From Eubacteriales bacterium (GTDB taxonomy: Bacteria > Bacillota > Clostridia > Oscillospirales > CAG-272): a stretch of 64,000 nucleotides of DNA. The position numbers and the translations under genes were made by a program. Positions within the stretch are counted from its first letter, which is position 1; each line of letters begins with the position of its first letter. The stretch covers positions 25,714 through 89,713 of the forward strand of contig JAZOVD010000030.1 in assembly GCA_045658525.1 (NCBI GenBank), read 5' to 3'. Shown here in pieces: positions 31,976 to 53,144 of the stretch. The notes under the pieces are model-generated. The model was given only the letters and a program-made list of their open reading frames with translations, did not search any database and was not told the DNA's origin.

Positions 31976-32004
31976 TTGACATATAAACCCTTTTATAGTA
32001 TAAT
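31976..32004 (+). promoter_or_regulatory. consensus sigma-A promoter of the 32-36 kb island
   Basis: TTGACA (31976-31981), 17 nt, TATAAT (31999-32004). The leader is about 110 nt. Confidence 0.65.
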
Positions 32005-32115
32005 ATAGGTGTAAGGAGGACGAAGAATATTTACGGCAAAGGTAAAAACATAGGCAAATACACAAGTAAACAAAGGTTTTTCATCACTTTTCTGACTACG
32101 AAAGGAGAAAGTAAA

Positions 32116-34839
32116 ATGAAAAAAAGAACTTTAACAAAAATTCTTACACTTCTGCTCACTTTGTGCATTCTGTCAGTATCGGTTATGCCGATATTCGCCG
32201 CAAGTATCACTACCGACAGCGAGGTACTGACAGGCGAGGACATAGTAAAAGAGGATGAAACAAAGCGTGAGCGCTTTTCAAAGCATTTCTTAACGGGTGA
32301 CGGCAGTTATTTTGCCGTTGCGTACGCGTCACCGGTAAATTATATGGACGACGACGGTACTTGGAAAGAAGTCGATAACACTATGACCACGAATATTTTT
32401 ACCGGCGACAAAACAACTAAAAACGATAAATTTAAAGTAAAATTCTCAAACAAAGCAAATAAAGATAAGTTAGTTACCATACAGACAGACGAATTCAAGG
32501 TCTCGTGGGGGCTTAGTATATCGGGTGACGGAGAAAACTACGGTAAATTAAGTTCTGTAAAGGGCGCAGCAAGCTACGACGCGAGTGAGCCAAAGACCAC
32601 CAAAGAGGCGACCAAGCTCGGAAAAGCTGTTTCGTCTATGAAATATGAAAACGTTTACGACGGCAAGGTGGATTTGCAGTATAGCGTTTCTCACGAAAAA
32701 GTAAAAGAGAACGTTGTTTTAAAAGAAAAAACGGATTTCGTTTCGTATCGCGTAACGTATAACATAAAAGATACCGCAACGGAGCTTCTTTCCGACGGAA
32801 GCGTTATCTTCCGTGACACGGATGGAAACGTACTTTTTGAGGTTGGCGCACCCTTGATGTGGGATGAAGCCGGCGAAAGCTCCTCGGATATAGCCGTCAG
32901 CGTTGAGCATACCTCAAAGAAAACGGTGGAGATAACCTATACACCAAGCGCGGAGTGGTTAAACTCCGATGAGAGAGTTTATCCTATCGTGGTTGATCCG
33001 TATATGGAAACCTCACAAGAAACAAGCAATATTATGGACACGAGAGGTTATTATTATTATCCGCTTGATGCACAATATGAGGCTACCGCGCCCGCGCTGA
33101 TAGTTGGTTTTGATTATTTAGTGTATCTTAAAATATTAAATGTTCCGCTACTTCCGGCTGGTATGACGGTACAGAGTGCTAATCTTGTAATATACGGAAG
33201 CGACTTACAAATACCAACGGATGGTGCTGATGACTTGTTTTACGGTTTAGGTAAAGTCACTCAGTCTTGGACGGATGAACTGTTCGTAAGCGATGATGAA
33301 GAATATAATGAGCGTGTAAATCCGGATAACGCCTACGAAATGTTTGGAGCTGGGAATTTCCCCTCTGTTAGCATGTATGCTTATTATGACGTATATGAGG
33401 ATATTGTGTACGATTGGAATGGTATATATTATTCGAATCTTGATATTCCAAGTGATTTTTGGAATACTTCCGGGGGCTATAATCAATATTTTTCCACATA
33501 TAAGGGATTCCAAATTTCCCTCGACTATAGATGTGGCTGGCAGTTGTATTCCGGAGATTTTTATGATGAATATTATCGTCCATCTCTTTCGGTGAGATAT
33601 TCGGTACCTTCCGGACCTAATATTTCAAGCGATAATTTTTACAGAATAAAAAATAAATACACTGGAAAGTATCTTACCATAGGAACTGATAATGCTACGG
33701 GAATTACTAATGTGTATCAATCAAACCTTATACCTGATCCGAGCAGTCAAGTATTTAAATTTGAATATAGCCACGTAAGAGGAGCTTATCAAATAAGAAC
33801 TTATAGCTCTGTTATTTCAAATAGCGACAATGGATATATAAATTTTGACCCATCACAATTTCCATATATGCTACCAAGTAATTATTCAAATGCCGAAATA
33901 GGTCAAGACATATATAACTGGATAATATCTGCAGTGGATAGTACATCTGTTTCAGCGGGATATACCATAACTTATACCAACATGCCTTCTTTTGGACTTC
34001 GCGCTTACGGAGCTAAGAACGGAACTCCGCAAAACACAGGACAGAATAACGGAAATATTGGTGTAGGTTATACCGCAGCTGGTGCCAATGGTAGCGCATG
34101 GGTATTTGAAAGATATGATGTACCTGCTAATTTAGCCCTTAATATGGTTGGAATACGAGAGGAGAATTTTAATAATCATGTTACTAGTGTAACATCAAAT
34201 TTTGTAGGATTGGGTTATGATCCGAATGACGATATGTATATAAATACTGATATGTCATACGATGTAGATGAATTTATATCTATGCTTGAAAATGCTGAGA
34301 TAAGTATAGTTTCTTCGCACGGTGAACAAAACGCAATAAATATTACTTATGAGGGCATACAAATAACCGGTTCGGATTTTAAAACATATGTTCAGACTCA
34401 ATCGGAAGAATATGGTCAGGAAAACTATTATCAATATGTGGATTTAAGTCATGTAGAATTGGTGGTATTATCAACGTGTCTTAATGCGTCAGGGGTTGGT
34501 TATAATGATACTGTTGTAGTTGTTTCGCCAACTTCTTCTCCGCGTAATATGATGGAGATGCTAATAAAATGCGGTGTAAAATGTGTAATAGCATTTGAAG
34601 ATGAGGTGGGTGAAATAGATGGAAGTGAATTTTGTATAGATTTATTTACCCAATTAAACTCCAAAGTTAATAATAAATACTTAACATTGGAGCAAGCATT
34701 GATTGCTATATATGATGAGGGAGGATATTCAACAATTCCTTGGGCTAACGTTGTAGTCGGTGTACGCGAAGCTGGTATGGAGGATAGAACCCTTGAGGAT
34801 ATGTTGTCAGCTTATAGAGAGGATAACTATGGTACATAA
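32116..34839 (+). CDS. secreted multidomain protein: WapA/Rhs-style N-terminal region + DNRLRE-like domain + ricin-type lectin-like domain + CHAT/caspase-like C-terminal domain
   Basis: Signal peptide MKKRTLTKILTLLLTLCILSVSVMPIFA. N-terminal region ERFSKHF...YPIVVDP. LPAGMTVQSANLVIYGS...VTQSWTDE is DNRLRE-like. YRIKNKYTGKYLTI...SQVFKFE...GSAWVFERYD is beta-trefoil-like (nt about 33630-34120). ISIVSSHG (His735, nt 34318) and LVVLSTCLNASG (Cys788, nt 34477) have CHAT-like spacing. Confidence 0.8.
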   Translation: MKKRTLTKILTLLLTLCILSVSVMPIFAASITTDSEVLTGEDIVKEDETKRERFSKHFLTGDGSYFAVAYASPVNYMDDDGTWKEVDNTMTTNIFTGDKTTKNDKFKVKFSNKANKDKLVTIQTDEFKVSWGLSISGDGENYGKLSSVKGAASYDASEPKTTKEATKLGKAVSSMKYENVYDGKVDLQYSVSHEKVKENVVLKEKTDFVSYRVTYNIKDTATELLSDGSVIFRDTDGNVLFEVGAPLMWDEAGESSSDIAVSVEHTSKKTVEITYTPSAEWLNSDERVYPIVVDPYMETSQETSNIMDTRGYYYYPLDAQYEATAPALIVGFDYLVYLKILNVPLLPAGMTVQSANLVIYGSDLQIPTDGADDLFYGLGKVTQSWTDELFVSDDEEYNERVNPDNAYEMFGAGNFPSVSMYAYYDVYEDIVYDWNGIYYSNLDIPSDFWNTSGGYNQYFSTYKGFQISLDYRCGWQLYSGDFYDEYYRPSLSVRYSVPSGPNISSDNFYRIKNKYTGKYLTIGTDNATGITNVYQSNLIPDPSSQVFKFEYSHVRGAYQIRTYSSVISNSDNGYINFDPSQFPYMLPSNYSNAEIGQDIYNWIISAVDSTSVSAGYTITYTNMPSFGLRAYGAKNGTPQNTGQNNGNIGVGYTAAGANGSAWVFERYDVPANLALNMVGIREENFNNHVTSVTSNFVGLGYDPNDDMYINTDMSYDVDEFISMLENAEISIVSSHGEQNAINITYEGIQITGSDFKTYVQTQSEEYGQENYYQYVDLSHVELVVLSTCLNASGVGYNDTVVVVSPTSSPRNMMEMLIKCGVKCVIAFEDEVGEIDGSEFCIDLFTQLNSKVNNKYLTLEQALIAIYDEGGYSTIPWANVVVGVREAGMEDRTLEDMLSAYREDNYGT

Positions 34840-34840
34840 G

Positions 34841-35980
34841 ATGAAACTGATTCATAAAATCTTAATTCCAATAGCCGCGCTTGTTATAGTTTTTTGCAAT
34901 CTTTTTCTGTTATTTGGATATCAATATGATATTTGTTTTGAAACAACAAGCTCGTATTTTGAAAAAAAAGCAAATCAAACATTGGCTGCGGAACATAAGC
35001 TATATCCTAAATACGATGTTTTTTATTCCTCTACGGACTATGATGTTTTTGAAAAAACGTTAGAGCTTGATGGCATAACGTACACCTGTAAGTCAACACA
35101 TTCGGCATTTTATGAGGATTATAGATACCATACAGAATACTATTCGTTCAAGTCGGAATATGGAGAATTTGTAAGCTTCGAGGCTTACGGAGACCAAATA
35201 TATTCTCTTACCTTTCAGCAAAAAAAATCTGATACCGACACCGGAAAACCTTCTCGGGAGCTTGTATATGAGTACGTTGAGAGATATTGCGGAAGCGTTT
35301 TAATGGATTATAGCGGGGATTTATATGAGGATTATAAATATATTAGTTATACTCCGTATGACCTCGCACATAATAATCGAGATTATGTATATTATGATTT
35401 TCTTGATTTAGGAAATTGTCATCTCCTTGTAAAATATGCTGACGGAAAGCCTACGAACGATATAATAAAGGTCACTTTGACAAACACGGGCGATTTGCGC
35501 GAAATACGAATGTTAGGATTCCCAATTTTCCCAGATACGGAAGTGAAAATTCCCGAAAACATCTTGAAAAACGCCGTTTGCAGATATTTTGACAATCATT
35601 CAAAGAAATATATAGAACTTGCCCACTCCGATGATGTTATAGACGAATTTGAATTGGGCGATTTTGAGAGCATACGTATATTTAAAACTCCGCTTGGAGA
35701 ATACGGAGCAAGAGGTTGGATAAAAGTTACCTACAACAAATATAACGGGTACGTTTATGACAAAGAAACGGATAGCTTTGTTCTCGGAGAGCCGACCACG
35801 GTAACCGACAATATTTTTATATCAACCATGCTTACCTCACCTGACGTTATTGTAAAGACAGTTATAGCGATAGCGTTTGAAACATTGTGTCTCGGATATA
35901 TAGTGACCGTTATAGTTATGTATATTATCAGACGCAAAAAATCCACCATTCCCACCGAACAGGAAGAACAAACCGAATAA
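34841..35980 (+). CDS. Tyr/Asp-rich membrane protein with TM helices at both ends, unknown family
   Basis: ATG 34841 begins 1 nt after the upstream TAA (34837-34839), which suggests translational coupling. N-terminal TM ILIPIAALVIVFCNLFLLFGY, C-terminal TM VIAIAFETLCLGYIVTVIVMYII followed by RRKK. The 34760 start overlaps the upstream gene and is rejected. Confidence 0.75.
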   Translation: MKLIHKILIPIAALVIVFCNLFLLFGYQYDICFETTSSYFEKKANQTLAAEHKLYPKYDVFYSSTDYDVFEKTLELDGITYTCKSTHSAFYEDYRYHTEYYSFKSEYGEFVSFEAYGDQIYSLTFQQKKSDTDTGKPSRELVYEYVERYCGSVLMDYSGDLYEDYKYISYTPYDLAHNNRDYVYYDFLDLGNCHLLVKYADGKPTNDIIKVTLTNTGDLREIRMLGFPIFPDTEVKIPENILKNAVCRYFDNHSKKYIELAHSDDVIDEFELGDFESIRIFKTPLGEYGARGWIKVTYNKYNGYVYDKETDSFVLGEPTTVTDNIFISTMLTSPDVIVKTVIAIAFETLCLGYIVTVIVMYIIRRKKSTIPTEQEEQTE

Positions 35981-36020
35981 ACCCAAAGCCGTCGCGAAAG
36001 CGCCGGCTTTGGGTTTTATC
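35981..36020. terminator. bidirectional terminator between convergent genes
   Basis: ACCCAAAGCCG-N12-CGGCTTTGGGT followed by TTTTATC. Confidence 0.7.
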
Positions 36021-42859: not shown

Positions 42860-42896
42860 AAAAATATGCTGTTGCGTTGCAACAGCATATTTTTTA
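42860..42896. terminator. bidirectional terminator
   Basis: ATATGCTGTTGC-GTT-GCAACAGCATAT flanked by an A-run and a T-run. Confidence 0.8.
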
Positions 42897-43502
42897 TTCA
42901 TAATATCTTATACTTGCCGTCACAGTTCCGAGGATATATACCTCGTCCGTGATTATAGGCTCTAATTTACTGTTTTCGGGTTGGAGACGGTAGTGCCCGT
43001 TTTCCTTATAGAAACGCTTTACCGTCGCCTCGTCGCCTATTCCAGCGACTACGATCGTGCCGTTTTCGGCGTAGTCCGTCTTTTTTACTATCAGTATATC
43101 GCCGTTCAGTATTCCGGCGTTTATCATACTTTCGCCCTTTACCCTTAAAGCGAAATACTTGTTGTATCTGTAATCCTTATCGGGTATCGGAAATTCGATA
43201 AAGCCCTCGGTGTTTTCGTCAGCAAATATCGGGAGTCCCGCCGCGACTCGTCCTACTATCGGGATCCTTCTGTTCTCCCCGAAGCCTTCGCGTTGATCTA
43301 CTCTCAAAGCTCTGCTCTTTCCGTGATCCTTGTGTATAAGCCCCCTTTTTTCGAGACGGGCAAGCGACGCGTGGACGGTAGAGGTGCTCTTTATATCAAA
43401 AGCGGACTGTATATCGCGCACGCTCGGCGCGTAACCGTTTTTCTCAAAGCAGTCCGAAATATATGCAAGTATATTGTTGTCCTTTTCAGATGTTTTCGAC
43501 AT
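42894..43502 (-). CDS. lexA: LexA repressor
   Basis: N-terminal wHTH GYAPSVRDIQ...STSTVHASLARLEKRGLI. Cleavage site VAAGLP. S24 peptidase GESM...K. Confidence 0.9.
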   Translation of the reverse strand: MSKTSEKDNNILAYISDCFEKNGYAPSVRDIQSAFDIKSTSTVHASLARLEKRGLIHKDHGKSRALRVDQREGFGENRRIPIVGRVAAGLPIFADENTEGFIEFPIPDKDYRYNKYFALRVKGESMINAGILNGDILIVKKTDYAENGTIVVAGIGDEATVKRFYKENGHYRLQPENSKLEPIITDEVYILGTVTASIRYYE

Positions 43503-43555
43503 ATTCCAAGTTTTTCCCTCCTTTTTCAACTTATATTTACATTATACCAATAAAA

Positions 43556-43569
43556 CGAACAAAGGTTCT
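43556..43569 (-). promoter_or_regulatory. SOS (Cheo) box upstream of lexA
   Basis: CGAACAAAGGTTCT versus the Firmicutes consensus CGAAC-N4-GTTCG. It lies about 54 nt upstream of the lexA ATG and overlaps the region before TGGTATAAT. Confidence 0.65.
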
Positions 43570-44980: not shown

Positions 44981-46249
44981 TTATTTTTTTCTGCGCGCGG
45001 AAATAAACGCTGCGCACTTTTCGGCAGAGCCATATACCACGAACGGGAAAAAGCATATACCGAGAAACGCGGGAATGAGTATCCATCTTGAATTTGCCGT
45101 TCCCACGGTGAAGTAAACGTAGCAGAATATCACGCAAGCGGCAAATACTGCGCAGGATATGACTATGGCGAGAACGTTAAAGATAAAGCCTGTTATGCCT
45201 ATGTCGTTTCCGTATTCCGCACCCTTGACAGAGAACGCTCCCATATCAGGAGCCGCGTTTTCGTCGGTTTGGGGTTCGGTGTAAAGCGTAGTGTTTTCTT
45301 GTGTGTGGGGCGATTCTTGGTCGGGGGTGTTACGCTCTGCCGTCATTTCCGCTATTCGGAGCAGACGCGCTCCCCTCTTTCGGCGCGCTTCCAGCCTTTT
45401 TGAGAATATAGCGGAGAAGATCATATACGCTATGCCGAATATAAACGTACCGATAACACCTATGATAAAGAGCCATTCGGGTCTTACTCCGTCGGTAACT
45501 ATCCTTTTCGGATCGAATGCTCCGTTAAAGAACATACTCCTTATTACCGAGAACACGATGCCGCCGAGTGAGGCGAACATAAATATAAGAGAGAACGTAG
45601 CTCCGAGAAACGCCGTGGCGACCTCAGTGACAGTTCCCCTTGATCCTGGGGTCTCGCTTTCCGCTCTGAAAAAGTAATATCTTCTTCCGTTGTCCGAGGC
45701 GAAAAGAAATTTCCAACCGTGCTTTGTGAGGTCGATGAGCTTTTTGTTCTCGTTTTCGGTAAGCTCTCTACTGACGGAAAACACCTTGTATTCGCCCGGC
45801 TCTGTCTCAAAGCCGTATTCTATCGAGTCATCAAAGACGTATTCGCCCGCCGTGAACGCGACGAGACGCTCACCCTCAGCGCGTTTGGATTTTAACCATT
45901 CGCTTTCGGCTTTGTCCGAGTTCTTTTCTCTTATGAAGCTTTTTTTCTCTGTTGAAAGCTCCGACGGAAGCTGTTTTCTGTAAAAACGCACGTCCTTGAA
46001 CGTGAATACGTATCTCCATTCACTGTTTAGGGTTTCGTATATGCCGCCGTCCGAACGGTTAGAGGTTGCGTAGAGATAACGCGCTCCTTCATCGCGGGAG
46101 AAAAAGCAGGTCGAGCCCTCGGCTTTTTCTATGTGAAGTCCCTTTGATGACATAGAGTTTATATATGATAGCAGACCCTCCGTTTTTTTACCGTTGAACA
46201 TCATCAAACGGAACGGCTTGCGTTTTTTAATGTTTATTTCTGTTATCAA
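44981..46249 (-). CDS. DUF2812-like membrane protein
   Basis: Two N-terminal repeats of the ..WL....A..G..L......Y.F type (LLSYINSMSSKGLHIEK, WLKSKRAEGERLVAF, LTKHGWKFLFASDNGRRYYFF), followed by several TM helices. TTG start 8 nt after GGAGG. Confidence 0.5.
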   Translation of the reverse strand: MITEINIKKRKPFRLMMFNGKKTEGLLSYINSMSSKGLHIEKAEGSTCFFSRDEGARYLYATSNRSDGGIYETLNSEWRYVFTFKDVRFYRKQLPSELSTEKKSFIREKNSDKAESEWLKSKRAEGERLVAFTAGEYVFDDSIEYGFETEPGEYKVFSVSRELTENENKKLIDLTKHGWKFLFASDNGRRYYFFRAESETPGSRGTVTEVATAFLGATFSLIFMFASLGGIVFSVIRSMFFNGAFDPKRIVTDGVRPEWLFIIGVIGTFIFGIAYMIFSAIFSKRLEARRKRGARLLRIAEMTAERNTPDQESPHTQENTTLYTEPQTDENAAPDMGAFSVKGAEYGNDIGITGFIFNVLAIVISCAVFAACVIFCYVYFTVGTANSRWILIPAFLGICFFPFVVYGSAEKCAAFISARRKK

Positions 46250-46762: not shown

Positions 46763-46854
46763 TTATCTAACCAACGTTTTTTTCTGTCATAATGAATTAT
46801 TTGTGTCAATATTCGGTTGTATTCGGTATTTAACCGTCGTTATTTGCAAGCGGG

Positions 46855-47019
46855 TTTTCAACACAAACCCACAGAGTTTTCCACAGGTTGTGTGTTTTTC
46901 CACACCCAAGACCCTATGAAATCACTATATTTTGGGGCTTTTTGGGGGAGTTTTCCACAGGGGCGTCAGCCGAAATCGGGTGATTTATCCACAATCGACT
47001 CTATGCGACATTATTCACA
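46855..47019 (+). promoter_or_regulatory. cluster of six co-oriented DnaA boxes
   Basis: TTTTCAACA 46855, TTTTCCACA 46877, TTTTCCACA 46896, TTTTCCACA 46951, TTATCCACA 46985 (perfect match), TTATTCACA 47011. All are on the plus strand. Confidence 0.6.
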
Positions 47020-48547
47020 TATAGTCACGGTCAAGGGTGCGTAGCTGTATCGCCTCAGCCATATGAATGGCTGTTATTTTTTCGCTTTGATCAAGGTCGG
47101 CGACGGTCCTCGCGACTTTAAGTATGCGGTCGTATCCGCGCGCGGAAAGACCGATATTTTCAAACGCCGCGGTTATTAATTTTTCCGCATCGGGTTCAAG
47201 AACGCAGAATGTCCTTATCTGCGCGGGTGTCATTTTAGCGTTTGAGTAAACTCCGCCGTTCTTGAATCTTGGGGCAGCGAATCTCCTTGCGTTGTTTACG
47301 CGCTCGCGTATCGTCTCGGAGCTTTCTCCCACGGTCATTCCCGAGATCTCCTCTTTGGTAAGAGAGGGCATTTCTACCTGTATATCTATTCTGTCCAAAA
47401 GCGGCCCGCTTATCCTTGAAAGATAACGCTTGACGTCATCGGGCTTGCAGGTGCATTTATGTGTAGGATGACCCCTGTAACCGCATTTGCACGGGTTCAT
47501 CGCGCAAAGCAGCATAAATGAGCTTGGGAAACGGAGCTTACCGTTGGCTCTGGTTATGGTTATCTCGCCGTCCTCTATCGGTTGACGGAGGACCTCGGTA
47601 ACTTGTCTTGTAAACTCGGGAAGCTCGTCGAGGAAAAGGACTCCGTTATGAGCGAGAGATATTTCACCCGGAACGGGTATCGCGCCGCCGCCCGCGAGCG
47701 AGGCGGACGACATCGTGTGGTGAGGAGAGCGTATAGGGCGTGAGGTTATAAGCGAGACTCCCTCGGGGAGCATACCTGCTATCGAGTATATCTTTGTTAC
47801 CTCAACAGCCTCGTCAAACGACATATCGGGCAGTATTGACGGCAAACGCTTAGCGAGCATACTTTTTCCCGTTCCGGGAGGTCCTATGAGCAGGAGATTG
47901 TGACCGCCTGCCGCGGCTATCTCCATTGCCCGTTTGGCTCGCGCCTGACCCTTTACGTCAGAAAAATCAGCGTTTATATGAGTCCTTACAGTCTTTAACA
48001 TATCCGGGTCGAACTCAGTAGGCTCTATCGGCTTTTTTCCGTTGAGGTGGGAGACGAGCTGTTTTACGTTCTCTACTCCGTATATGTTTACTCCGCTTAC
48101 GACAGATGCTTCCTTTGCGTTTATAGCGGGAACGAATATCTCGCGTATTCCGCGTTCCTTTAACGCCAGCACCATACACAGTACCCCGCGTACTCCGCGC
48201 ACGCTTCCCGATAGGGAAAGCTCGCCGAGAAAGCACTTTTTATCAAACGGGACTTTGGGGTCTATGTAACCTGAGGAACGCAGTATTCCTACGAGCATAG
48301 CGAGGTCGAACGCAGTTCCGCTTTTCTTTGTGTCCGCGGGAGCCATATTTATGACTATCGCGGCATCGGGAAAGGTTATACCGCTGTTCTCTATTGCCGT
48401 GCGGATACGCTCCTTTGCCTCTTTTACGGCGGCGTCGGGAAGTCCGACCACCTCAAAGCTGGCGAGCTTATCCTGTACGTTACATTCAACGGTTACCGCG
48501 TAACCGTCAACTCCGCTTATTCCCGCGCTATATACAGTAGAAAGCAT
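47015..48547 (-). CDS. comM: YifB/ComM-family Mg-chelatase-like AAA+ ATPase
   Basis: Lon-protease-like N-terminus, Walker A LLIGPPGTGKSML, C-rich insert CKCGYRGHPTHKCTC, and a C-terminal ChlI tail. Confidence 0.9.
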   Translation of the reverse strand: MLSTVYSAGISGVDGYAVTVECNVQDKLASFEVVGLPDAAVKEAKERIRTAIENSGITFPDAAIVINMAPADTKKSGTAFDLAMLVGILRSSGYIDPKVPFDKKCFLGELSLSGSVRGVRGVLCMVLALKERGIREIFVPAINAKEASVVSGVNIYGVENVKQLVSHLNGKKPIEPTEFDPDMLKTVRTHINADFSDVKGQARAKRAMEIAAAGGHNLLLIGPPGTGKSMLAKRLPSILPDMSFDEAVEVTKIYSIAGMLPEGVSLITSRPIRSPHHTMSSASLAGGGAIPVPGEISLAHNGVLFLDELPEFTRQVTEVLRQPIEDGEITITRANGKLRFPSSFMLLCAMNPCKCGYRGHPTHKCTCKPDDVKRYLSRISGPLLDRIDIQVEMPSLTKEEISGMTVGESSETIRERVNNARRFAAPRFKNGGVYSNAKMTPAQIRTFCVLEPDAEKLITAAFENIGLSARGYDRILKVARTVADLDQSEKITAIHMAEAIQLRTLDRDYM

Positions 48548-51349: not shown

Positions 51350-52461
51350 ATGACGGAAGCGAATAACAGCTATAAGGAATATATATTGGCCAAAAAACAC
51401 CACGCGTTCAGAACCGAAAAGAGCCTGATAACGTTCTTTTTACGAACGGCGAGTATCACGAAAGAATGGCGAAACGCTTCAAGGCGCTTCTTGAGCTTCA
51501 AGATGCTGTGTTCATTCCGAACGATATGTTCGTGCCTACACGGACTACCGTCTGCGCGCCGGATATACTTACGAAAAATGACCCCGAAAGCGCCGAAAAC
51601 ACAAAAATGCATGAGTGTGGGTGGCTTTCAAATATAAATCCCGATTACGGAAAGATAATCTCAAAGGGATTTTTAAAGGTAAAAGAGGAGATAGCCGAAG
51701 CATCGGAAAAAACCGACGACGCCGGCAAAAAGGCATACGCTCAGTCGCTTCTGACTATCGTTGACGCTATTATTGAGTTTGCTGACAGATATAAAAGGGC
51801 GGCTCGTGAGGCGGGCGAAAACGAGATAGCGGACGTTCTTGAAAACGTTCCGAAATACGGAGCGAGAAGCTACCGTGAGGCTCTCCAAGCGTTCAGGATA
51901 GTGCATTTCTGTCTGTGGCTTGAAGGAGATTATCACGTTACGGTAGGTAGATTCGATCAGTATATGTATCCGTATCTTTTGGCGGATATGGAAAAGGGAG
52001 CGTTGACCTACGACGAGGCTCTCGCTATGACCGAGAACTTCTTTATAAGCTTTAATAAGGACAGCGACCTTTACAGAGGAATGCAGCAGGGTGATAACGG
52101 TCAGAGTATGATGCTCGGCGGTTATGACGAGAACGGAAACGATACTTACAATACTCTTTCCGAGATATGCCTTAAAGCATCTCTTAACGTTCGTCTCATC
52201 GACCCGAAGATAAATTTGAGAGTCAATAAAACGACCCCGATGGACAGATTGGTTTTTGCTTCCGAGCTTACCGCGGCGGGACTTGGGTTTCCGCAGTATT
52301 CAAACGACGATATAGTCGTTCCGGGACTTATCGCTCTTGGGTATGATAAAGAGGACGCGGTGAATTATACCGTTGCCGCCTGCTGGGAATTTATCATACC
52401 GGGAGTCGGAATGGATATACCGAACGTAGGCGCGCTTTCGTTTGCGGACTGTGTAAGATAG
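51350..52461 (+). pseudogene. glycyl-radical enzyme (PFL2-type) gene remnant: frameshifted N-terminus, C-terminal half deleted
   Basis: Frame 2 (MTEANNSYKEYILAKKHHAFRTEK) continues in frame 1 (EPDNVLFTNGEYHERMAKRFKALLE...) across the A-run near 51415-51421. The sequence runs through GRFDQYMYPYL...GDNGQSMMLGG...VAACWEF and stops at 52461. The roughly 400 aa that should carry the glycine-radical motif are absent. Confidence 0.7.
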
Positions 52462-53144
52462 ACGGCTGTACGGTCAGCGGCGGCAAAACCGCGCTTCAAA
52501 ATGCCGATACGGGTCTTTGTAACGGTTGCGAGAGATGCGTTTCAAAATGCCCGGAAAACCTCAGACGTGTTTCGGGTAAGGTCTATACCGCCGAGGAGCT
52601 GAAAACCAAGATAATGAAAAACAGTGTGTTTCTTGCTGACGGTGGGGTGACGTTTTCGGGCGGAGAACCGACTATGCAGGCTGACTTTCTTTGTGAGATG
52701 CTCGATATTCTTCCGCTTCACCGCGCGGTCCAGACCTGTGGTTTTTGCTCCGAAGAAACGTTTAAGCGCGTTCTTTCTAAGATAGATCTTATGCTGTTCG
52801 ATATAAAACATACGGATAGAGAAAAGCATAAGCTATACACGGGCGTTGATAATGCCACTATTCTACGAAATCTTGATACTCTTATTGCTTCCGAAAAGCC
52901 TTTTATAGCTCGGATACCGCTTATAGCGGGCGTAAACGACGACCCTGAAAACCTTGGAAACGTCGCGGCACTTTTGAAAAACGCTGAAAATCTTATAAGA
53001 GTCGAGCTTCTTCCGTATAACGGAGCAGCGGGCGCGAAATATGCGATGGTCGGACGGGAATACGAGGGAGCGTCATTTGAAGCTCCGTTAAGACCTGATA
53101 CGTCGCGTTTTGCGGCTTTGGGGATAGATTGTAAGGTGATGTGA
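52452..53144 (+). pseudogene. glycyl-radical enzyme activase remnant lacking the radical-SAM CxxxCxxC N-terminus
   Basis: The reading frame gives CKIDGC...CNGCERCVSKCPENL...GGVTFSGGEPTMQ...DIKHTD...RIPLIAGVNDD. It starts directly at the deletion junction with the GRE remnant. The first Met is only at 52614. Confidence 0.65.

Follow-up and report, generated by a model that had tools for sequence, protein, structure and literature searches.

Six co-oriented DnaA-type boxes lie within 165 bp of a 64-kb stretch of contig JAZOVD010000030.1, from an uncultured gut Clostridia genome (the whole stretch is hereafter called the window), in the spacer between comM and a gene of the DUF1273 (YpsA) family. 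The boxes are real and highly non-random, they have kept their positions in relatives while the DNA around them diverged, and they are of the same type as the boxes found at origins and replication genes of related bacteria. On balance, we lean towards the view that they form a non-origin DnaA-box cluster kept by selection, which would modulate transcription of DUF1273 and of the DUF2812-domain gene behind it and would sequester some DnaA on the side.

Reading of the sequence placed all six boxes on the + strand of 46855-47019, exactly where an initial annotation of the window had put them, including the perfect box at 46985. Because both flanking genes lie on the minus strand, the spacer is downstream of comM and upstream of DUF1273. 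All six boxes are direct repeats on the same strand and none is palindromic. Five of them, rather than the four first counted as highly similar, differ from TTATCCACA by at most one mismatch, and the same five are exact matches to TT(A/T)TNCACA, which is quoted as the general DnaA-box consensus (PMC4674748). The array is laid out as follows:

46763-46854, minus strand: box-free AT-rich gap of 92 bp between the proximal box and the DUF1273 start codon
46855-46863, + strand: box 1, TTTTCAACA, promoter-proximal; two mismatches to TTATCCACA, one to TT(A/T)TNCACA
46865-46873, + strand: degenerate middle box, AAACCCACA, three mismatches; recognised from the spacer alignment and box maps
46877-46885, + strand: box 2, TTTTCCACA, within an exact 14-nt repeat, GAGTTTTCCACAGG
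46896-46904, + strand: box 3, TTTTCCACA
46951-46959, + strand: box 4, TTTTCCACA, within the second copy of GAGTTTTCCACAGG; position conserved
46985-46993, + strand: box 5, TTATCCACA, perfect consensus and the sole perfect match in the 64-kb window
47011-47019, + strand: box 6, TTATTCACA, overlapping the comM stop codon (47015-47017) and two bases of the last sense codon

The boxes thus occupy the distal 165 bp of the spacer and only the last of them touches comM. The array had been described as spanning the 3' end of comM and the whole upstream region of the DUF1273 gene; the first part holds for box 6, and the second gives way to the 92-bp box-free gap, which is presumably where the promoter and 5' untranslated region lie. 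The degenerate sequence AAACCCACA appears to be the decayed middle member of a promoter-proximal triplet with a spacing of 10-12 bp.

There are 21 sites in the window with no more than one mismatch to TTATCCACA, where 10.6 would be expected; 143 bp are enough to contain five of them. The proposal that the array is far denser than chance is borne out, as neither of two kinds of randomization reached the observed density: at most three such sites shared a 200-bp interval across 200 second-order Markov simulations of the window, and 3000 dinucleotide shuffles of the spacer gave a mean of 0.15 and a maximum of two, against five observed. Perfect matches to TTWTNCACA number 12 in the window (3.6 expected), with five of the 12 inside the cluster. 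We also applied the density/affinity score A of Ishikawa (definition from PMC2533591), whose 0.3 threshold is calibrated on B. subtilis only; the cluster has A = 0.25 and the next-best site in the window 0.09. Exact copies of TTTTCCACA occur 53 times in 1.07 Mb comprising the window and 160 further loci, and 29 of the 53 sit in nine clusters. Clusters of this type are therefore rare in the DNA searched, and within the window and ~1.0 Mb of related DNA, which is partial data, comparable densities were confined to a few specific places instead of recurring at many random intergenic sites. A second apparent cluster at 31.8-32.0 kb was rejected, since it consists of a palindrome and a promoter-like TTGACA and not of DnaA boxes.

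Conservation of the boxes downstream of comM

A ComM scan that kept one genome per species gave 80 loci, from gut and rumen metagenome-assembled genomes labelled Oscillospiraceae, Eubacteriales or Clostridia. In a neighbour-joining tree of ComM, the window falls into one clade with L001, L002, L009 and L003 (ComM 78-86% identical), with L004 as the outgroup, and these four are the only relatives in which DUF1273 directly follows comM. The gene order HAD hydrolase, deacetylase, comM, DUF1273, DUF2812 is common to the clade. The spacers of L001, L002 and L003 hold four, four and three boxes with at most one mismatch, respectively, plus several two-mismatch boxes, and each of the three is significant against its own shuffles (P <= 3e-4).

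These boxes persist in DNA that has otherwise diverged. The DUF1273 proteins of the relatives are 47-55% identical to that of the window, and the spacers of the four species (window, L001, L002 and L003) are barely alignable, with a mean column identity of 52%. Only two spacer blocks are invariant among them and both contain a box, one at the 46951 box (CTGTGGA...AAAC) and the other at the 46877 box (CTGTGGAAAAC.CTGTG). The latter begins the promoter-proximal triplet, whose same-orientation boxes are 10-12 bp apart and occupy the same register in all four spacers:

L002: 5796, 5808 and 5818
L001: 5703, 5715 and 5727
L003: 5827, 5839 and 5849
window: 46877, 46865 and 46855, the middle copy decayed

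From the proximal box to the start codon the distance is 92 bp in the window, 97 bp in L001, 96 bp in L002 and 101 bp in L003. Box orientation relative to the gene is uniform in the window and L002 and mixed in L001 and L003. Boxes held in a fixed register amid diverging DNA are the pattern expected of selection acting on the boxes themselves.

The same boxes at replication genes of relatives

Elsewhere in the order, boxes of the same types cluster beside genes of DNA replication. In four loci, clusters of four or five boxes (TTTTCCACA, TTATCCACA or TTATCAACA) lie just upstream of a gene with a DnaD/DnaB_2 domain, which is followed by a gene for a DnaC/DnaI-like ATPase:

L008: 5256-5409
L011: 9062-9214
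L022: 8603-8757
L026: 8151-8267

The DnaD-like gene is supported by Pfam in all four loci; the ATPase is supported by NCBIfam in L026 only and by weak tblastn similarity to a DnaA AAA+ probe in the others. Together the pair looks like a dnaB-dnaI-type helicase-loader operon. The clusters contain three or four copies of TTTTCCACA, in most cases with one TTATCCACA, they resemble the window cluster in box number, and 13 of their 19 boxes face the downstream gene the same way as the window boxes do. They differ from it in lying ~50 bp rather than ~95 bp from the open reading frame. DnaA control is easier to rationalise at these loci because the downstream genes encode replication proteins, and the clusters suggest that DnaA may control helicase-loader genes in these gut Clostridia. 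A dnaB-dnaI-like operon is also present in L016, where it has no cluster.

Related box types fill the origins of three other loci from the scan, in which comM lies close to dnaA:

L048: 559-5527, comM the immediate divergent neighbour of dnaA
L066: 563-5527, comM the immediate divergent neighbour of dnaA
L033: 3989-9529, dnaA 1.7 kb downstream of comM

Pfam confirms dnaA and dnaN in L048 only, and in L066 and L033 these genes are identified by tblastn and the same gene order. Boxes of the TTTTCAACA, TTTTCCAAA and TTTTCAAAA kinds, and not TTATCCACA, crowd the spacer that follows dnaA in all three loci, with tandem box copies ~11 bp apart and the string CCTGTTGAAAACTC; TTTTCAACA is the dominant repeat of the dnaA-dnaN spacer in L048 and is also present in L066. 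In L048 and L066, hardly any boxes can be recognised between dnaA and comM. Because the spacers after dnaA carry such boxes, T is a normal third base for DnaA boxes of this order, where box 1 of the window, TTTTCAACA, counts as origin-type. Furthermore, the supplement of Smith and Grossman 2015 (PMC4447404) lists TTTTCCACA, TTTTCAACA and TTATTCACA for B. subtilis DnaA-bound regions, and TTTTCCACA has been described as a cyanobacterial DnaA box. The occurrence of the same box types at dnaA-dnaN origins and before dnaB-dnaI-like operons therefore supports DnaA as the binding protein.

When loci were ranked by A, the top scores in 1.0 Mb fell at the following places:

L011, 0.64: upstream of the dnaB-dnaI-like operon
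L063, 0.41: downstream of comM and upstream of fhs
L026, 0.29: upstream of the dnaB-dnaI-like operon
L008, 0.25: upstream of the dnaB-dnaI-like operon
L022, 0.17: upstream of the dnaB-dnaI-like operon
L001, L002 and L003, 0.12-0.16: comM-DUF1273 spacer

High-scoring sites in L005 (0.24) and L128 (0.22) were rejected as clusters, as by eye they are other repeats (TTATGCATA palindromes and TTCTGCACA repeats at a contig end). The cluster in L063 (5704-5765) consists of four co-oriented boxes in 62 bp (TGTGGAAAACTC, TGTGCAAAA, TGTGGAAAACTC and TGTGAAAAACTC) with 180 bp between it and the preceding comM and ~200 bp between it and the formate-tetrahydrofolate ligase gene (fhs) that follows; the locus has no DUF1273 gene. 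Its ComM belongs to a distant lineage, in a clade close to the one with comM beside dnaA. This single case gives a hint that DnaA boxes may long have resided at the 3' flank of comM.

The boxes downstream of comM are further set apart by their flank. The motif AGTTTTCCACA has nine copies in the 1.07 Mb, all of them in clusters downstream of comM (window, L001, L002, L003 and L063), and AG precedes the exact TTTTCCACA in 9 of 15 copies downstream of comM versus 0 of 38 elsewhere (Fisher P ~1e-6). On the other strand this form reads TGTGGAAAACT. The two copies of the extended flank in the window are at 46874-46887 and 46948-46961, and the AG is absent from all 14 TTTTCCACA copies upstream of dnaB-like genes. 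An AAAACT flank is also found on some boxes in the spacer after dnaA in L048 and L066. The AG flank may reflect a DnaA site that has been lengthened in this lineage, or it may mark a second binding protein.

Possible roles of the cluster and their rivals

If DnaA recognises the array as the comparative evidence suggests, it would bind the perfect box and the TT(A/T)TNCACA boxes cooperatively, aided by their common orientation, and could extend from there onto the promoter-proximal triplet, in which boxes are one helical turn apart. Bound DnaA would then modulate transcription entering the DUF1273-DUF2812 unit, either by acting on an activator-dependent weak promoter in the ~95 bp gap, with the array centred upstream as at sda, or by forming a roadblock to read-through transcription from comM. 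Both options stay because no sigma-70 promoter was recognised and no sense-strand terminator was found after comM in the window, L001 or L003 (L002 has one weak terminator-like match). Some DnaA would also be held away from oriC, as in the clusters of Bacillus; such sequestration follows automatically from binding, and is unlikely to be the main function given A = 0.25 and an array of five or six boxes. What the sequences show is the array itself; that DnaA occupies it, which way it would shift expression and whether initiation is affected are matters of inference.

The proposal of a non-origin DnaA-box cluster resembling those of Bacillus matches the anatomy of the array, and the sequence statistics and comparative evidence support it. 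In B. subtilis such clusters are found at sda, ywlC, yydA, ywcI-vpr, gcp-ydiF and thdF-jag (Ishikawa 2007, PMC2533591; Okumura 2012, PMC3245932; Smith and Grossman 2015, PMC4447404). Like them, the window cluster has at least four close boxes with no more than one mismatch to TTATNCACA (five in 143 bp), is intergenic and off oriC, is conserved at the same locus in related species (L001-L003, absent in L009), precedes a gene, like those at sda, ywlC and yydA, and is made of box variants among those bound by B. subtilis DnaA. Unlike them, it resides in an uncultured gut Clostridia host between comM and DUF1273, and its boxes have T as the dominant base at position 3 and carry the AG flank. Its boxes are also more widely spaced, which accounts for its lower A (0.25 versus >0.3).

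The E. coli sites datA and DARS act by IHF-dependent stimulation of ATP hydrolysis or of nucleotide exchange, with defined box geometries, and are characterised in that species. The window cluster resembles datA, DARS1 and DARS2 as a non-origin cluster of few boxes, and the E. coli sites influence DnaA activity (PMC4585315 and PMC5742627).

Several observations weigh against selection for DnaA-dependent control of DUF1273. The DUF1273 gene of L009 has been retained behind a spacer without boxes. The window cluster falls just under the A of 0.3 that marks stable in vivo binding in B. subtilis, and L001-L003 score lower still. The native oriC box preference of the window lineage is judged from relatives whose ComM is ~58-60% identical, in none of the four species (window, L001, L002 and L003) did the sense strand yield a recognisable sigma-70 consensus promoter between array and start codon, and the bias towards the AG flank is not obviously explained by DnaA specificity. 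Moreover, searching metagenomes with six aligned DUF1273 proteins brought up 80 homologues (41-50% identity), which have no comM upstream and no cluster (0-3 boxes, mostly 0). We therefore rejected the cluster as a general feature of DUF1273 genes: conservation upstream of these genes holds in three of the four clade relatives and fails in the 80 distant homologues, and the cluster is tied to DUF1273 only within this clade.

Foremost among the alternatives, though in our judgement an unlikely one, is that the array is a pure DnaA sink, a titration or chromosome-organisation site like B. subtilis gcp-ydiF with no role in the expression of its neighbours. Early initiation follows the deletion of six non-origin clusters in B. 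subtilis (PMC3245932), and one B. subtilis cluster lies between convergent genes without a known regulatory role. A sink would also fit the lack of a recognisable promoter in the spacer and the L063 cluster, which is likewise downstream of comM and precedes a different gene, fhs. In addition, comM is near dnaA in L048, L066 and L033, so the comM location may be origin-near in the order. However, little DnaA would be tied up by an array of this size (five or six boxes, A = 0.25), and the fixed distance of 92-101 bp to the start codon together with the mostly fixed orientation fit a promoter-linked role better; the dnaB-dnaI-side clusters of relatives are likewise positioned relative to a gene.

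A bolder form of the regulatory reading, which we also think unlikely and place just behind a sink, is that the cluster is a lineage-specific DnaA target in which the phased TGTGGAAAACT array makes a domesticated YpsA/DprA-like SLOG gene and its DUF2812 partner respond to DnaA-ATP or the replication state. If so, DUF1273 would be a checkpoint effector with Sda-like logic, acting via a nucleotide-binding SLOG protein beside the recombination helicase ComM, and with the dnaB-dnaI-side clusters it would outline an undescribed DnaA regulon in Clostridia.

Less likely again is recognition by a protein other than DnaA of the longer motif CTGTGGAAAACTC, the likeness to DnaA boxes being partly coincidence. 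The AG flank (9/15 copies downstream of comM versus 0/38 elsewhere) and the exact 14-nt repeat GAGTTTTCCACAGG speak for such a protein, as do the DnaA-box-like half-sites in operators of metagenomic DUF1273 cassettes. At least eight of the metagenomic homologues adjoin a divergent upstream gene (L094 and L120, with similar loci in L097, L122, L128, L144, L146 and L154). In the two that were checked with Pfam, L094 (2531-3483) and L120 (2524-3474), this gene encodes an XRE-type HTH_3 regulator and has a CHAP-domain gene beside it, and in L120 BrxA lies downstream; the nearby CHAP-domain genes and BrxA suggest that these contexts are mobile elements. Palindromic operators (TTGTTGA-N6-TCAACAA or TTGTTGA-N6-TCCACAA) overlap the promoter in these cassettes with halves that mimic DnaA boxes, and the single box-like sequences of the metagenomic homologues are halves of such palindromes. 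The six boxes of the window are instead direct repeats, no regulator gene adjoins the cluster, and the perfect TTATCCACA and TTATTCACA occur in it without the extended flank. The AAAACT flank also appears in the spacer after dnaA of L048 and L066, and the same 9-mers cluster at replication genes of relatives. We rejected a palindromic operator for an XRE repressor on similar grounds, as all six boxes are on one strand and no helix-turn-helix gene is adjacent.

A chance or neutral feature, such as would arise if a short unit were duplicated locally within a variable spacer, is very unlikely. Two boxes do lie within an identical 14-nt unit, the comM 3' flank is highly variable across the order, and L009 lost the boxes and kept the gene. 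Against this, the boxes persist in four species despite 47-55% DUF1273 identity and barely alignable spacers, each spacer is individually significant, and two boxes as well as the triplet are orthologous by position.

The least probable account is that the array is a relic or accessory part of an origin, left from an ancestral comM-dnaA arrangement, or a second origin. Firmicute origins are bipartite box arrays, and with their arrays flanking dnaA plus an unwinding element they resemble the window cluster in that boxes are co-oriented and some are one helical turn apart; relatives carry the same variants in their dnaA-dnaN spacers, and comM sits beside dnaA in L048 and L066 and 1.7 kb upstream of it in L033. 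Nonetheless, the 64-kb window has no dnaA, dnaN or DnaD-like gene, and tblastn with DnaA probes and a DnaD-like protein gave no match there, although the same probes detected dnaA in L033, L048 and L066, and no replication gene is among the 30 window open reading frames annotated with Pfam. Cumulative GC skew climbs up to 42 kb and again beyond 50 kb, with a plateau across the minus-strand gene block in between, so that the site has positive skew to either side and shows neither a minimum nor a turn. The genes flanking the cluster run in the same direction rather than divergently, no DnaA-trio array was seen beside the proximal box in the AT-rich 46763-46860 by inspection only, and the cluster adjoins the 3' end of comM, whereas in L048 and L066 it is the 5' end of comM that faces dnaA. 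The view that this is not a canonical oriC stands, and an origin of replication was rejected on the absent skew switch and the lack of dnaA, dnaN or a DnaD-like gene in the window. An iteron-type origin of a plasmid or other element was rejected because the copies share only 9-14 nt (iterons have 17-22 bp) and there is no rep gene; the conserved chromosomal synteny from the HAD hydrolase gene to DUF2812 also counts against it.

Most of what is known about non-origin DnaA-box clusters comes from B. subtilis and E. coli. A comparable cluster under selection in uncultured gut Clostridia would widen the idea of DnaA as a transcription factor or a titrated initiator to a poorly studied group, and the clusters before the helicase-loader operon of sister lineages extend the same idea; together, they suggest a DnaA regulon in gut Clostridia. 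This opens no new class of mechanism and provides concrete targets for DnaA-binding and reporter work.

The DUF1273 gene and its surroundings

The genes that flank the cluster, all on the minus strand, are as follows:

47015-48547, minus strand: comM/yifB, Mg-chelatase-like AAA+ gene, 510 aa, upstream of the cluster; Pfam Mg_chelatase, ChlI and Mg_chelatase_C, TIGR00368 at 594.7 bits
46280-46762, minus strand: DUF1273 gene of the YpsA-family SLOG type, 160 aa, directly downstream of the cluster; PF06908 at 77.3 bits, E = 1.7e-21
44981-46249, minus strand: DUF2812-domain gene, after DUF1273; Pfam PF11193

The DUF2812 gene is probably in the same transcription unit as DUF1273, and its position after DUF1273 is kept in L002, L003 and L009.

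Membership of the DUF1273 protein in the YpsA family is well supported, with a PF06908 score far above the cut-off of 27.7 bits, YpsA (2NX2) as the best PDB match (E = 1.1e-10) and an invariant G50-F51-D52 in the DUF1273 alignment that corresponds to the GxD/E signature motif defined for the YpsA SLOG domain (PMC6459960). In the NCBIfam model for the YpsA equivalog (PRK13660), by contrast, the protein scores 57.6 bits against a cut-off of 165. There is no gpsB beside the gene, whose neighbours are comM and DUF2812, and of the four branches into which the family divides, one has the ypsA-gpsB coupling and the division phenotype (PMC6459960). By its sequence, then, the gene is a member of the YpsA family and not a YpsA orthologue. 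The initial annotation had suggested that a cluster controlling a YpsA-like gene would connect replication with division. This coupling is not supported, given the sub-threshold YpsA score, the missing gpsB and a phenotype confined to one branch, and the 80 homologues without a cluster weaken it further. The protein also has a weak match to the DprA domain in Pfam (E = 3.7e-4), and because of this match and the neighbouring ComM we speculate that a role in DNA processing is at least as plausible as one in division.

The notion that dprA normally follows comM and that DUF1273 replaces it was rejected, as the downstream genes are heterogeneous across the order. In L004-L080, the genes after comM encode a BspA-type leucine-rich repeat protein, a class IV aminotransferase, an NYN-domain protein, a pyridoxal phosphate enzyme, a carbonic anhydrase, a rhomboid protein and Fhs. 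This variety makes the region just 3' of comM a hot spot of rearrangement in the order.

Other signals in and around the spacer were also considered. The box-free gap contains a TTGACA at 46809-46804 on the minus strand. Just upstream of it in the sense of the gene, a direct repeat, TATTCGGT, occurs at 46810 and 46820, one helical turn (10 bp) apart and spanning 46810-46827; it is not conserved in L001-L003. A structured RNA or riboswitch in the spacer was rejected, since Rfam gave no match in the window and the fold is unremarkable against shuffles (z = -0.59). SOS control of DUF1273 was likewise rejected, because the sole GAAC-N4-GTTC site in the window precedes lexA. This site, GAACAAAGGTTC (43557-43568), lies 28 bp upstream of the start codon of lexA (42894-43529, minus strand) and fits ordinary LexA autoregulation.

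Two further features lie elsewhere in the window. The stretch at 32000-36000 has a GC content of 36-40%, against ~47% elsewhere, and holds two large open reading frames (32116-34839, 907 aa; 34760-35980, 406 aa), neither with a Pfam match; it may have been horizontally acquired. At 51466-53144, a 331-aa open reading frame matches only positions 157-445 of the 647-position profile of a pyruvate formate-lyase-like glycyl-radical enzyme and is followed by a short radical-SAM open reading frame (176 aa), and the two may represent a glycyl-radical enzyme and its activase that have been truncated or are decaying.

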